Positions 6,479 through 9,278 of a stretch of 41,547 nt of DNA are shown piece by piece. Below the pieces are notes generated by a model, which saw only the letters and a list, made by a program, of their open reading frames with translations, did no database searches and was not told where the DNA came from. The translations under genes and the position numbers were made by a program. Where the stretch lies: the IMG/VR virus record IMGVR_UViG_2529292882_000020, positions 1 through 41,547 of that record; one strand, given 5' to 3'. This DNA comes from a virus. Taxonomy: Duplodnaviria > Heunggongvirae > Uroviricota > Caudoviricetes. Each line of letters begins with the position of its first letter. Within the stretch, counting starts at the first letter, position 1.

Positions 6479-7105
6479 TTAGAGTTCGTATTGAACTCCT
6501 TTGACTACACCAATGATAAGGCAATTACCATTGATAGGGATGTTGGGATACCGAGGATTTAATGGCACTAAAAACTTTTGAGGGCCATCGATGACTAATT
6601 TTTTTACTGTAGCTTCGTTTGTTCCATCAAGTCGAGCGATGACTATTTTTCCATGACGAGGTTCTGCATCTGGATCTACAATCACTGTTGCGCCTTCTGG
6701 TATTGTTGGGAGGCCATTAGGGTTAGTCATGGAGTCACCTTTAACCTCTAATGCAAATGAGTTATCACCAATCTTTAGTGATGTATCTACCCACTTGTCC
6801 ACTTCACTAAACACTTCTGCTGCCCTGCACTCAGTAAACTGCCCAGCCTGAACCCACGATATTACAGGAACTCTGCGCATGTTTGTGACGAGTTTGCCTT
6901 CAAACTCAGCACCATAAAGAATGTAATCTATTGACGTATTGAAGAACTTCGCTAATTTCGAAAGTGCCTCCCCACCAGGGGTATTGATGTCTTTCTCCCA
7001 GTACCCCACAGCAACGTCGCTTACTCCACAAAATTTACCCAATTCTTTCTGGGACGTTCCGGTAACTCTTCTCAGAGCTTTTATACGCTGACCAACCGTT
7101 TCCAT
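6479..7105 (-). CDS. cI: CI-type repressor (XRE HTH + S24 LexA-like autopeptidase domain)
   Basis: 208 aa; N-terminal HTH (TSQKELGKFCGVSDVAVGYWE), C-terminal GDSM...KK Ser-Lys dyad region; divergent from cro. Confidence 0.85.
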   Translation of the reverse strand: METVGQRIKALRRVTGTSQKELGKFCGVSDVAVGYWEKDINTPGGEALSKLAKFFNTSIDYILYGAEFEGKLVTNMRRVPVISWVQAGQFTECRAAEVFSEVDKWVDTSLKIGDNSFALEVKGDSMTNPNGLPTIPEGATVIVDPDAEPRHGKIVIARLDGTNEATVKKLVIDGPQKFLVPLNPRYPNIPINGNCLIIGVVKGVQYEL

Positions 7106-7202: not shown

Positions 7203-7403
7203 ATGACAACTGACGATATCGAAAGCTACTTCGGCAGTATTGAGAAAGTTGCTGCTTTTTTCGGCATAACAACTGAAGCCGTTTATCAGTGGCGAAACCG
7301 TCCGGGCCAGTTAATTCCAAAAGGACGTGCAGCAGAAGCTGCATATAGAACTTGCGGACGGTTGCCATTTAAACCTGAGCTTTATGAAAAATCTAATGGA
7401 TAA
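7203..7403 (+). CDS. cro: Cro-like HTH repressor
   Basis: 66 aa; HTH (IEKVAAFFGITTEAVYQWRNR); GGAGG RBS; divergent from cI. Confidence 0.7.
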   Translation: MTTDDIESYFGSIEKVAAFFGITTEAVYQWRNRPGQLIPKGRAAEAAYRTCGRLPFKPELYEKSNG

Positions 7404-7992
7404 ATCGATTAACAGAAACCACAGAACGATGAGGCTAACCGTGGGTAAGCATCACTGGAAAGTAGAAAAACAGCCTGAGTGGTACGTGAAAGCTGTCAGA
7501 AAAACTATCGCAAAGTTGCCGGGTGGTTACGCTGAAGCAGCTGACTGGCTGGATGTAACAGAGAACGCATTATTTAACCGCCTTCGTGCCGATGGCGATC
7601 AGATTTTCCCGCTGGGATGGGCAATGATTTTGCAACGTGCTGGTGGAACTCACTTCATTGCTGACGCTGTGGCGCAGTCTGCAAATGGCGTCTTTGTGTC
7701 TCTTCCTGACGTCGAGGATGTGGACAACGCCGATATTAACCAGCGCCTGCTGGAAGTCATTGAACAGATCGGCAGTTATTCAAAACAGATTCGTTCAGCA
7801 ATTGAAGACGGTGTAGTGGAACCGCATGAGAAGACAGCAATTAACGACGAGCTGTACCTCTCAATTTCGAAGCTGCAGGAGCATGCAGCACTGGTCTACA
7901 AAATTTTTTGCATTTCGGAAAGTAATGACGCCCGCGAGTGTGCAGCTCCGGGCGCCGTGGCGTGTCGTGACTGTGGAGAAACTAACGCATGA
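7384..7992 (+). CDS. putative early regulatory protein (CII-like position)
   Basis: ATG at 7384 overlapping cro stop; about 202 aa; family uncertain. Confidence 0.4.
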
Positions 7993-8327
7993 ACAGTTTA
8001 ACAACACACTACCGTCGCTCGCAACTGATTGCGCTTCCTGTACCGGGTGGAAAAGCGAAGGTGGAGTATTGCTATGCAGTAAATGTACCAGGTGACAGGG
8101 AAATTGTAACCCACAGCTTTGCAGAGTGGGCTGTGGGTGATTTCAACCGGCAGAAGGAGACAGTCCTTTGCGACAAGTTAACAGCTGGTTCAAAGATCAC
8201 TACGGAGTGCCCGTCAGAGTCATTCGTTGGGAGCCGGAAACACAACGGGTTATCTACCTCCGCGAAGGCTATGAGCATGAGTGTTTCAGCCCGCTCGAAC
8301 AGTTTCGTCGTAAATTCAGGGAAATAG
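7989..8327 (+). CDS. hypothetical early protein; 3' part possibly frameshifted or overlapped by another ORF
   Basis: first ~57 codons look protein-like, rest is Ser-rich low complexity; alternative frame 8168..8347 has AAGGAGA + TTG and cleaner protein-like sequence. Confidence 0.35.
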
Positions 8328-8336
8328 AGGTCGGTC

Positions 8337-9278
8337 ATGAGCACTAAATTAACCGGCTATGTATGGGATGGTTGCGCTGCATCAGGCATGAAATTATCCA
8401 GCGTGGCAATTATGGCCCGCCTGGCTGATTTCAGTAATGACGAAGGTGTGTGCTGGCCATCAATTGAAACCATTGCCCGCCAGATTGGCGCGGGGATGAG
8501 TACCGTCAGAACGGCTATCGCACGGCTGGAAGCAGAAGGCTGGTTAACGCGTAAGGCGCGTCGCCAGGGTAACCGCAATGCGTCGAATGTTTATCAGCTT
8601 AACGTTGCGAAGCTTCAGGCAGCGGCATTTTCTCAACTGTCAGATTCTGACCCGTCAAAATCTGACGCATCAAAATCTGACCCGTCAAAATTTGATGCGT
8701 CGAAATCTGGCAAAAAAGCGGGTTTTCACCCGTCAGAATCTGGCGGGGATCCGTCAGTAAAATCAAAACATGATCCGTCAGATAAAAAAACTTCTCGTCC
8801 GGACGCTTCGCAACCGGACACGCAGACGGATGAACAGGATTTTTTAACTCGCCATCCTGATGCGGTTGTATTCAGCCCTAAAAAGCGCCAGTGGGGGACG
8901 CAGGATGATTTGACCTGCGCACAGTGGCTCTGGAAAAAAATCATCGCCCTGTACGAGCAGGCTGCCGAATGTGACGGCGAGGTGGTTCGTCCCAAAGAAC
9001 CGAACTGGACAGCCTGGGCAAACGAAATTCGCCTGATGTGTGTGCAGGATGGTCGTACTCACAAACAAATCTGCGAGATGTACAGCCGCGTCAGCCGCGA
9101 TCCGTTCTGGTGCCGTAACGTGCTCAGCCCGTCGAAGCTGCGGGAAAAATGGGATGAGCTTTCCCTGCGCTTATCGCCGTCCGTCAGCACGTACACCGAA
9201 AAACGCGAAGACCCGTACTTCAAATCCAGTTACGACAACGTGGACTACAGCCAGATCCCGGCAGGATTCAGGGGGTGA
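8337..9278 (+). CDS. phage replication initiation protein (lambda O-like, N-terminal winged helix)
   Basis: 313 aa; iteron array embedded in the coding sequence as in lambda O. Confidence 0.6.
   Translation: MSTKLTGYVWDGCAASGMKLSSVAIMARLADFSNDEGVCWPSIETIARQIGAGMSTVRTAIARLEAEGWLTRKARRQGNRNASNVYQLNVAKLQAAAFSQLSDSDPSKSDASKSDPSKFDASKSGKKAGFHPSESGGDPSVKSKHDPSDKKTSRPDASQPDTQTDEQDFLTRHPDAVVFSPKKRQWGTQDDLTCAQWLWKKIIALYEQAAECDGEVVRPKEPNWTAWANEIRLMCVQDGRTHKQICEMYSRVSRDPFWCRNVLSPSKLREKWDELSLRLSPSVSTYTEKREDPYFKSSYDNVDYSQIPAGFRG
8641..8800. repeat. replication origin iterons (CCGTCA[A/G]AATCTG-type direct repeats, at least 5 copies) followed by an A-rich tract
   Basis: copies at about 8651, 8681, 8729, 8752, 8777; protein shows the matching SDSDPSKSDASKSDPSKFDASKS repeats. 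Confidence 0.55.

Follow-up and report, generated by a model that had tools for sequence, protein, structure and literature searches.

How many genes lie between ymfL and the replication gene of this prophage? At this site in the window (the whole 41,547 nt stretch of DNA analysed), an annotated open reading frame (ORF), ymfM, turns Ser-rich while a second frame is open on the same strand. A sequence-only reading had offered two interpretations: an unannotated gene of 59 codons initiated at a TTG, or a frameshift dividing one gene. The answer matters beyond the window. Recently, ymfM was named as the long-sought e14 division inhibitor SfiC, known since 1983, and studies of SOS and UPEC filamentation now employ it as a tool and as a target for deletion. 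The features of the locus are as follows.

7327 to 7992, + strand: ymfL, CII/CP76-like (Pfam PF06892, NCBIfam NF041471).
7989 to 8327, + strand: ymfM ORF of 112 aa, orthologous to b1148 of K-12 prophage e14, the 'cell division inhibitor YmfM' (SfiC).
7989 to 8165, + strand: YmfM N-terminal domain, ~57–59 aa, with its amino acid sequence under selection.
8154 to 8160, + strand: Shine-Dalgarno (SD) sequence AAGGAGA of the DUF4222 gene, 7 nt upstream of TTG 8168.
8168 to 8347, + strand: nested gene for a 59 aa DUF4222 protein, with a 180 nt coding sequence starting at TTG and ending at TAA; frame −1 as seen from ymfM, which itself lies in frame +1 of DUF4222.
8168 to 8327, + strand: dual-coding segment of 160 nt, with YmfM tail residues 61–112 over DUF4222 codons 1–53.
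8325 to 8339, + strand: junction TAG-AGGTCGGTC-ATG, with the ymfM stop inside the replication gene SD, 9 nt ahead of ATG 8337 and sharing its frame.
8337 to 9278, + strand: replication-initiator-like gene (HTH_36), the next gene downstream.

The ymfM ORF has homologues that are 94–98% identical, and its product matched phrog_1170 over 112 of 112 residues (E 1.7e-69). As in K-12, it is found behind ymfL and ahead of the replication gene. The e14 gene of K-12 (b1148) also encodes 112 aa, in the same ymfL-ymfM-rep context, and the region is ~98% identical at the nucleotide level to K-12-type sequences. Whereas K-12 has a chimeric ymfN, the replication gene of the window prophage is intact. Iteron-like repeats are present within that gene, at 8625–8747. 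The ATG of ymfM overlaps the ymfL stop codon (ATGA, 7989–7992), a junction suggesting that the two genes are translationally coupled.

The product of ymfM falls into two parts. Residues 58–112 include 12 Ser in 55 positions, and S, T, A and G together account for 45% of this segment versus 26% of residues 1–57. Hence, the Ser-rich character claimed for the annotated frame after about codon 57 was borne out. AF2 predicted three strands and a helix for the N-terminal domain, with moderate confidence, and disorder for the tail (pLDDT < 40). A structure search with the YmfM model gave no match, the model being too poor. The N-terminal domain is weakly similar to DUF7507 and to Listeria-Bacteroides repeats; this looks like a common beta-hairpin motif only. 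Naturally shortened YmfM variants of 63–78 aa exist. Phages of Hafnia, Providencia, Yersinia and Citrobacter carry the N-terminal domain as a separate gene of 53–71 aa with no tail, and separate DUF4222 genes also occur elsewhere.

The second frame is closed upstream by the TGA at 8138–8140, is open from 8141 to 8347, and is ended by the TAA at 8345–8347; the peptide earlier quoted from it is correct. Its earliest usable start is TTG 8168, with no ATG, GTG or TTG between 8141 and 8167. TTG is a weak start codon. The AAGGAGA sequence does lie exactly 7 nt ahead of it. An RNA structure prediction over this ribosome binding site (RBS) contained a small hairpin that may occlude the SD, and this was not significant (z −1.0). 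The start codon keeps its position. It is TTG in each of the 52 unique e14-type sequences (79 of 79 IMG/VR loci), and ATG or GTG takes its place in other lineages. An SD of the GGAG or GAGG type was found 8–17 nt before the start in 16 of 20 representatives of diverged clusters.

The 59 aa product matched Pfam family DUF4222 (PF13973) with E 5.9e-19 and 67.8 bits (cut-off 27); residues 9–62 of the 68 aa open frame cover profile positions 1–52 of 53. It also matched PHROG 1343 over its full length. A tblastn search with the product, a check of the kind proposed in the sequence-only reading, found 111 phage records at identities as low as 33%. Homologues have the two-frame arrangement, and fused forms are sporadic indels. 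In an alignment of 18 sequences, the window protein has all of the core residues (D10, G13, V16, R27, I29, Y30, R32, G34, H37, C39, F40, P42 and F50). It carries Ser at position 6, where Arg is nearly invariant across the family. AF2 predicted a small beta-barrel (pLDDT 82.8). A structure search with this model returned generic SH3/KOW/Tudor-like barrels only, all at E > 0.02, a profile search against PDB sequences gave no match, and NCBIfam has no model for either the DUF4222 protein or YmfM.

Annotation of the locus is divided. The PGAP coding sequence WP_001250269.1 has the same coordinates as the nested gene, and PGAP calls this coding sequence in thousands of E. coli genomes; the window protein is 97% identical to the common E. 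coli form. PGAP shows DUF4222 only, with no ymfM call, and the curated K-12 annotation shows ymfM only. The description 'unannotated' is therefore right for K-12-style curated annotation but wrong for PGAP, and users of either source miss one gene. Judged from its sequence, the 59 aa frame is a real protein-coding gene with its own start and SD. The conserved start, the SD, stand-alone family members and the purifying selection described below all back this part of the earlier interpretation.

We measured selection on the two frames within e14-type loci. A scan of viral contigs gave near-identical loci of this type only, and the 52 unique sequences (79 IMG/VR loci) served for analysis of polymorphism, not divergence. 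Between 7989 and 8165, the ymfM frame had 18 synonymous and 7 non-synonymous changes, and 15 of 22 sites were at codon position 3. In the overlap, 15 changes altered the YmfM residue but were silent in DUF4222, versus 1 for the reverse; 14 of the 15 polymorphic sites were at DUF4222 third codon positions. Thus, selection at the amino acid level acts on ymfM up to ~8165 and on DUF4222 beyond this point, and the DUF4222 protein sequence is under purifying selection. Synonymous diversity per codon was ~0.3 in the N-terminal part and in the overlap alike. Therefore, the YmfM tail imposes no amino acid constraint of its own. Both ORFs were kept in 79 of 79 loci.

For divergence, loci were gathered by the DUF4222 peptide alone, and there was consequently no ascertainment on the ymfM frame. 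The 28 enterobacterial loci form 20 clusters at <88% nucleotide identity, and their four-fold sites differ by a mean of 0.58. The +1 frame, corresponding to ymfM, was open across DUF4222 in 28 of 28 loci and 20 of 20 clusters, with zero stops among 34 unique sequences. The DUF4222 ORF was intact in all of these loci except L003, which has a premature stop at W7. In simulations with synonymous codons, the chance of an open +1 frame was 0.02–0.10 for most sequences, with a maximum of 0.15; for comparison, real genes have an open frame in 11% of 52-codon windows. Codon choice followed the same pattern. Stop-forming Val and Leu codons were used at 0 of 62 sites at risk versus 25 of 47 safe sites (p = 5e-12). 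Where Val or Leu precedes a codon starting with A, the third base was T or C only, and turnover between T and C was seen. DUF4222 genes that are not overlapped have stops in the +1 frame (RgdR 7, phiNP 6, BZS1 3, EKP1 2). DUF4222 composition may contribute somewhat, because in Yersinia phage YeP3 and in Providencia the +1 frame is open though there is no upstream read-through ORF. Over the whole overlap, the ymfM frame is guarded against stop codons.

The end of the ymfM frame is also constrained. The DUF4222 stop codon is located 8 nt into the replication gene. We surveyed the junction in 27 distinct loci, in 2 of which no downstream ORF was called. Every distinct locus with a long ORF downstream had the same layout, regardless of the type of downstream gene. 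The ymfM-frame stop was usually 9 nt (range 0–9 nt) from the start codon of the next gene, whose frame it shares. In the DUF4222 frame, the bases of this stop belong to one of four rare xTA codons (ATA, TTA, GTA and CTA), and the stop falls at codon 53, 54, 55 or 56, following DUF4222 indels. The ymfM frame therefore has a single fixed end point. No significant RNA structure was found to mask the replication gene RBS (z = +0.9). In ST64B, SfV, PhiR40_1 and Stx phages, the +1 frame runs on into an Ash domain, which is followed by a Rha domain in ST64B, PhiR40_1 and Stx phages; Rha is absent from SfV orf37. This continuation, and the maintenance of a stop-free frame, would argue that the annotated frame is translated. 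Hence, the implication that it is spurious past codon 57 was half correct: its amino acids are unconstrained, but the frame is kept open and, in ST64B/SfV-type phages, leads into Ash and Rha.

We consider it highly probable that the locus contains two real protein genes that share a strand but not a frame, a nested out-of-frame pair in which the ymfM tail is sequence-unconstrained read-through. Alternatively, only DUF4222 might function after ~8165, the YmfM tail being an accidental run-on that is open by chance or composition. The tail has the properties expected of this, being of low complexity, predicted to be disordered and free to vary; PGAP does not call ymfM, variants of 63–78 aa persist in nature, and the +1 frames of YeP3 and Providencia are open with no upstream reader. 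An accident is nevertheless improbable, given a frame free of stops in every one of 20 diverged clusters when the chance is 2–10% for most sequences, the exclusion of stop-forming codons from sites at risk amid T/C turnover, one stop position rebuilt by four different codons, and the reading of Ash and Rha in the +1 frame of other phages. The tail could instead be a protein part that works independently of its sequence, such as a disordered linker or a degradation tag for SfiC activity or turnover, with no role as a ribosome conduit. Filamentation was tested with the full 112 aa ORF, the same segment links the N-terminal domain to Ash/Rha in ST64B-type phages, and tail length and end point are conserved. 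We think this unlikely, since the segment has no amino acid constraint besides that of DUF4222, N-terminal domains stand alone without it, and the stop follows the downstream RBS (codon 53–56) rather than a set tail length.

Least credible, and hardly to be expected, is one gene of ~119 aa joining the N-terminal domain to DUF4222, either split by mutation or sequencing error or expressed by a programmed −1 frameshift. Ribosomes slipping by −1 while reading ymfM would indeed enter the DUF4222 frame, and fused database proteins exist (P0030, P0053, P0059, P0065 with 14 members, and P0092). However, the junction differs in every fusion, as for individual indels or assembly errors, and the two-frame layout is present in all e14-type loci and all diverged lineages, including 28 of 28 enterobacterial loci. 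In each of these 28, an in-frame stop precedes the DUF4222 start by 0–38 codons (0–1 in L020 and L030). The DUF4222 start codon and SD are conserved, and the two domains are found as separate genes elsewhere. Programmed frameshifting was rejected: an X_XXY_YYZ heptamer is absent from the window, none is common to the 20 lineages, and the downstream frame is served by a conserved start and SD of its own. A pseudogene or sequencing frameshift was rejected because fused single-ORF homologues are rare with heterogeneous junctions and the two-frame layout is universal. The frameshift interpretation in the sequence-only reading is accordingly not supported.

With two nested genes, ribosomes translating ymfM would, after the ~57 aa N-terminal domain, read on in the +1 frame across the self-initiated DUF4222 gene. 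They would end at the TAG at 8325–8327, over the replication gene SD and 9 nt before its ATG. By the geometry of the locus, a 52-residue tail kept open could deliver ymfL-ymfM ribosomes to the start of the replication gene, so that the operon is not left untranslated. We put forward only tentatively the idea that the 52 codons of the tail are a selected ribosome bridge and no protein feature, with the corollary that SfiC may be DUF4222 or the 57 aa N-terminal domain, not 112 aa YmfM. Translation of DUF4222 alone could supply coupling to the replication gene. The overlap may have arisen at an ATGA stop/start junction between two neighbouring genes, the TGA of which became TGC or TGG (Cys61 or Trp); a change from ATGA to ATGC is a plausible one-nucleotide origin. 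Yersinia phage YeP3 retains the ATGA junction. From a few distant phages, we infer that separate genes came first.

Lambda Rz/Rz1 is the familiar case of a small gene with its own RBS inside a longer gene on the same strand, in another frame. Rz and Rz1 are both sequence-constrained, jointly form a spanin, and are both conserved across lambdoid phages. Conversely, at ymfM the DUF4222 frame holds all of the amino acid constraint and the ymfM frame is only kept open. The locus is an unusually clear natural instance of asymmetric dual coding, in which one frame is constrained in amino acids and the other only in being open with a fixed stop. Viral overlapping genes have been reviewed (PMC8227390). 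Homologous operons have 4 nt overlaps throughout. Translational coupling is known to occur through ATGA-type or short-distance stop/start junctions. The ymfL/ymfM ATGA, and the ymfM stop 9 nt before the rep ATG and within its SD, resemble these. Unlike in usual coupling, the putative coupling ORF spans a whole embedded gene before the next start.

The only characterised DUF4222 protein is RgdR (ECs1581) of EHEC O157:H7 prophage CP-933C/Sp7, which regulates LEE and motility (PMC3378721). Its DUF4222 core is 41% identical to the window protein over 49 residues. RgdR has 99 aa, with N- and C-terminal extensions, whereas the window protein is the bare 59 aa core. At the RGD motif of RgdR (residues 20–22) the window protein reads VNS and the family LNR. 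The rgdR gene is also prophage-borne and lies directly upstream of the replication/primase gene of its element, with a 4 nt overlap; it is not overlapped by another ORF, and its +1 frame contains the 7 stops mentioned above. The family thereby gains a context, with members directly upstream of prophage replication genes. The window protein probably folds as a small SH3-like barrel and is a relative of RgdR, and it is probably a small regulatory or nucleic acid-binding factor tied to the replication module.

The two-gene arrangement bears on the identity of SfiC. Expression of the K-12 ymfM ORF from pBAD24 was reported to cause filamentation and to block Z rings, and ymfM was reported to be SfiC (Ansari et al., bioRxiv 10.1101/2020.11.19.390815). 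This function was given to the 112 aa frame, and the nested gene was not considered. We found no mention of the ymfM/DUF4222 overlap in the literature, nested-gene screens (PIRT-Seq) included. Lambda Kil, Rac KilR and Qin DicB are prophage proteins of ~50–70 aa that block Z-ring formation when expressed. No sequence or Pfam relation was found between these and either frame, and ymfM/DUF4222 sit in the rightward replication operon whereas lambda Kil-type genes sit in the leftward kil region. The pBAD24 ymfM clone also includes DUF4222 codons 1–53 and their SD. Indeed, the published D1-8E library clone, pBAD-ymfM and the lambda-Red deletions all involve both genes. Two single-base changes would suffice to part both products cleanly. 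As checked in silico, C8174T turns DUF4222 Gln3 into a stop codon and leaves YmfM Asp62 as it is, and T8179A turns YmfM Leu64 into a stop codon and leaves DUF4222 Val4 as it is. Adding 1,195,833 to a window position gives the K-12 coordinate. On balance, we slightly favour the YmfM N-terminal domain as SfiC over DUF4222, which is the lesser candidate.

Positions ~6.5-10.7 kb of the window are the immunity and replication region of a lambdoid E. coli prophage resembling e14. The genes, in order, are:

6479-7105, minus strand: cI-like repressor
7203-7403: cro
7327-7992: ymfL, CII/CP76-like
7989-8327: ymfM ORF (frame 0), 112 aa, orthologue of K-12 ymfM (b1148)
8337-9278: HTH_36 replication-initiator-like gene
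after the HTH_36 gene, last in order: PerC-like gene

ymfL and ymfM share an ATGA, in which the stop of the former overlaps the ATG of the latter, and nearly all junctions in homologous operons are 4-nt overlaps. A 551-nt query taken around the feature matched 2,647 of 5,426 complete E. coli genomes, mostly at 95-99.5% identity.

The sequence-only reading described a second frame inside ymfM, and proposed either an unannotated 59-codon TTG-initiated gene or a frameshift splitting one gene. Its statements about the sequence were all correct when rechecked on the window. Frame 2 is closed by TGA at 8138-8140 and is open from there to TAA at 8345-8347. The earliest possible start is TTG 8168, with no start codon 5' of it, and a Shine-Dalgarno (SD) sequence, AAGGAGA (8154-8160), lies 7 nt upstream. 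The tail of YmfM (residues 58-112) is rich in Ser (12/55), and Ser, Thr, Ala and Gly together make up 45% of it, compared with 26% of the N-part. The 59-aa product of frame 2 is a full-length Pfam DUF4222 protein (E 5.9e-19, 67.8 bits, cut-off 27) and its start is conserved in homologues. Hence, the TTG gene was the right choice. YmfM had no match in Pfam. Among phage protein families (PHROG), YmfM corresponds to phrog_1170 and phrog_20047, and DUF4222 to phrog_1343.

The gene is absent from the curated K-12 record, but "unannotated" does not hold generally; PGAP already calls exactly this 180-nt TTG-initiated CDS (WP_001250269.1, "DUF4222 domain-containing protein"). The nested gene is not new to databases. 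PGAP leaves ymfM uncalled, even on K-12-identical sequence. Conversely, the curated K-12 record, where b1148 is labelled "cell division inhibitor YmfM", and some phage records annotate ymfM and not the DUF4222 gene. Each record inspected showed one of the two.

In an AlphaFold2 model (pLDDT 82.8), DUF4222 has five strands forming a small barrel, plus a short helix. The Foldseek matches of this model were all generic barrels of the KOW, Tudor, SH3-like and KorB-C kinds, none with E below 0.02. In the YmfM model, residues 13-66 form three strands and a helix with moderate confidence, and residues 67-112 have pLDDT < 40.

The DUF4222 peptide alone served as query for homologues (L003-L006 plus 29 GTDB loci, L007-L035), so the ymfM frame played no part in their selection. 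The sources were E. coli, Shigella, Klebsiella phages, Atlantibacter, Citrobacter, Enterobacter, Buttiauxella, Kosakonia, Raoultella, Silvania and Pantoea. The two-frame layout was common to all diverged loci from these genera. The upstream ORF encodes 102-117 aa and begins M[NT]SL; the DUF4222 frame is closed by a stop 0-38 codons 5' of the DUF4222 start. The position of that start codon is conserved (ATG, or GTG in ST64B-type phages, versus TTG in e14), and an SD-like motif precedes it in 16/20 lineages. Both ORFs, of 112 and 59 aa, and the TTG start are retained in all 79 full-length e14-type loci of IMG/VR, which comprise 50 unique sequences. Homologues are thus two ORFs, not single ORFs, with the DUF4222 frame conserved, and the proposed splitting of one gene by a frameshift was wrong. 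Fusions of the YmfM N-domain to DUF4222 do exist in databases (P0030, P0053, P0059, P0065 and P0092). The junction differs in each, the pattern that separate indels or assembly errors would give. Together, the shared layout, conserved starts and heterogeneous junctions rule out a single frameshifted gene. Programmed frameshifting was also rejected; no X_XXY_YYZ slippery heptamer was found in the window, and none was conserved among homologues. In one E. coli locus (L003 1377-1556; MLI106K2, NZ_CP117049.1), DUF4222 codon 7 is changed from Trp to stop, the overlapping ymfM-frame ORF is intact, and PGAP calls a 41-aa DUF4222 remnant.

We next compared polymorphism in 52 unique e14-type sequences. 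In the N-part (7989-8167), changes in the ymfM frame were 18 synonymous and 7 non-synonymous, and ymfM codon position 3 accounted for 15/22 polymorphic sites. Over the overlap (8168-8327), DUF4222 codon position 3 accounted for 14/15; the 15 changes at these sites were silent in DUF4222 and altered the YmfM residue. The sole reverse change belongs to the window itself: A at 8183 leaves YmfM unchanged and converts DUF4222 Arg6 to Ser. Arg6 is found in 51/52 e14-type sequences and in ≥90% of the DUF4222 family. The degeneration suspected in the annotated frame thus corresponds to a switch of the selected frame, from ymfM to DUF4222, at ~8165. Synonymous diversity per codon is similar in the N-part (0.31) and overlap (0.28). 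Hence, the YmfM tail adds no amino acid constraint.

The ymfM frame (+1 relative to DUF4222) is nonetheless stop-free over DUF4222 codons 1-52 in every overlapped locus. Its only stop falls at codon 53-56, and ST64B-type phages lack even that one; the +2 frame of the same loci contains 3-10. In simulations with synonymous codons and local codon usage, an open +1 frame had a probability of 0.02-0.10 in most sequences (maximum 0.15). In real genes of these loci, +1-frame stops occur at 0.044 per codon, and only 11% of 52-codon windows are open. The overlapped genes form 20 clusters below 88% nucleotide identity. With four-fold degenerate sites differing by 0.58 on average, their synonymous sites are largely independent. 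We defined risk sites as Val or Leu codons before a codon starting with A, where an A or G ending creates TAA or TGA in the ymfM frame; at safe sites the next codon starts with C or T. In 34 unique sequences, A/G endings occurred at 0/109 risk sites and 38/81 safe sites. For the 20 cluster representatives, the counts were 0/62 and 25/47 (Fisher p = 5e-12). T and C alternate at the third base of risk sites, so synonymous change does occur there. As compared across these clusters, risk-site codon usage is decisive for the ymfM frame being kept open. Non-overlapped DUF4222 genes contain +1 stops, part of them at homologous dicodons (RgdR, 7; Citrobacter phiNP, 6; Serratia BZS1, 3; Elizabethkingia EKP1, 2), with the caveat that those of Yersinia YeP3 and Providencia have none. 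The Providencia loci (L032-L034, ~1457-1663) lack an upstream YmfM N-domain, yet their +1 frame is open for 58-67 codons and starts with a hydrophobic peptide (MKIQIISIAFIS...; chance probability ~0.04-0.05 in L032 and L033). A further nested ORF or a composition effect may explain this. Separately, the Leu43 codon (8294-8296; motif PLEQ, before G) is exclusively CTC or CTT in 31 unique sequences including homologues; CTG would leave the ymfM frame stop-free, yet is unused.

The ymfM-frame stop has a fixed site. It usually lies 9 nt (range 0-9 nt) ahead of the next long gene's start codon, in the same frame, and is part of that gene's SD (TAGAGG or TAAAGGA). Junctions were checked in distinct loci with a downstream long ORF; 2/27 had none called. 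The layout is independent of replication gene type (for example, starts MSTKLTGYVWD, MSLLMPSRPIV, MNTLIQ or MSRIFD). Four rare xTA codons of the DUF4222 frame build the stop (ATA, 10; TTA, 5; GTA, 2; CTA, 1), and the encoded residue varies between Ile, Leu and Val. In the window, the amber stop and replication ATG are in one frame, 9 nt apart (TAG AGG TCG GTC ATG, 8325-8339). Amber suppression, for example in supE laboratory strains, would yield a YmfM::replication-protein fusion.

Taken together, these comparisons argue that ymfM/DUF4222 is a conserved, asymmetric dual-coding segment. Amino acid constraint is borne by DUF4222, and the ymfM frame over the overlap is constrained just to stay open and to stop at the replication gene's ribosome binding site. 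The geometry and comparison suggest a "ribosome bridge", in which translation would be coupled across the overlap. The pair joins nested out-of-frame phage gene pairs, a kind already known. A small hairpin at 8154-8168 could pair the DUF4222 SD (AAGGA) with UCCUU reaching the first TTG base. It is not significant (z = -1.0); DUF4222 initiation could depend on ymfM ribosomes opening it.

In ST64B (sb41), SfV (orf37), PhiR40_1 ("Rha") and a Stx2a phage, the ymfM-frame ORF runs on without a stop. A Phage_ASH domain begins, at profile position 1, directly after the DUF4222 stop; Phage_pRha follows in all except SfV orf37. Nested DUF4222 is mostly unannotated in these records. Judged from sequence, the +1 frame is certainly translated in such ST64B/SfV-type phages. 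The composite ORFs as annotated (L116 1358-2515, ST64B "Sb41"; L117 1352-2188, SfV "transcriptional regulator"; L119 1352-2503, PhiR40_1 "Rha") run from a YmfM-like N-domain through the DUF4222-overlapping segment to Ash, and then Rha except in SfV.

Both modules also occur alone. N-domain genes of 53-71 aa are found in Hafnia phage yong2, Providencia phage PSTRCR_117lys, Citrobacter phiNP and Yersinia YeP3, and an exhaustive search found many more such proteins (59-68 aa). Stand-alone DUF4222 genes are found in Serratia BZS1, Elizabethkingia EKP1, phiNP and YeP3. In YeP3 the TGA of the N-domain gene overlaps the DUF4222 ATG (gtATGAct), and the upstream gene is thereby exactly in +1 relative to DUF4222. 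Overlapped lineages have ATGC or TTGC (YmfM Cys61, nearly invariant) or ATGG (Trp) at this position. Hence, single-base loss of the TGA (ATGA to ATGC) would be the simplest origin of the overlap.

The practical relevance of the nested gene lies in the SfiC/ymfM literature. Ansari et al. (bioRxiv 10.1101/2020.11.19.390815) assigned ymfM as SfiC, the e14 division inhibitor. In the accessible text, the pBAD24-cloned ORF caused filamentation and Z-ring loss, and lambda-Red deletion lowered SOS filamentation in a sulA background. As described there, DUF4222 codons 1-53 (the entire Pfam domain) are present in the pBAD24 clone along with the TTG start and its native SD, the original library clone (ymfL 142-185, ymfM, ymfN 1-92) includes complete DUF4222, and the deletions take out both genes. 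On these descriptions, the active SfiC product could be either. No frame-specific mutant was found in the accessible parts of the published SfiC work, and no mention of the nested gene in the searchable literature. In silico, C8174T converts DUF4222 Gln3 to a stop and is silent in YmfM; T8179A converts YmfM Leu64 to a stop and is silent in DUF4222.

Among DUF4222 proteins, only RgdR (ECs1581) of EHEC prophage CP-933C/Sp7 has been characterised; it is an LEE1/ler activator and motility repressor with non-specific DNA binding (PMC3378721; PMC10877973). It is 41% identical to the window's DUF4222 over the core (E 3e-11) and, like it, is encoded directly 5' of the primase/replication gene of its element. 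In O157 Sakai (L129 3720-4019, ECs_1581), the gene for this T3SS regulator overlaps the Sp7 primase gene by 4 nt. A replication gene lay immediately 3' of DUF4222 in almost every context seen.

YmfM residues ~18-36 (8040-8095) contain a motif similar to the beta-hairpin (LPV.GGDVTYCYAV.NTGD) that recurs in DUF7507 and Listeria-Bacteroides repeat proteins, with multi-stretch matches to large surface proteins; the likeness is probably at motif level only. Within the replication gene, five to six iteron-like tandem 15-nt repeats (TCAAAATCTGACNCR; 8625-8747) probably mark the prophage origin, by analogy with the lambda O gene.
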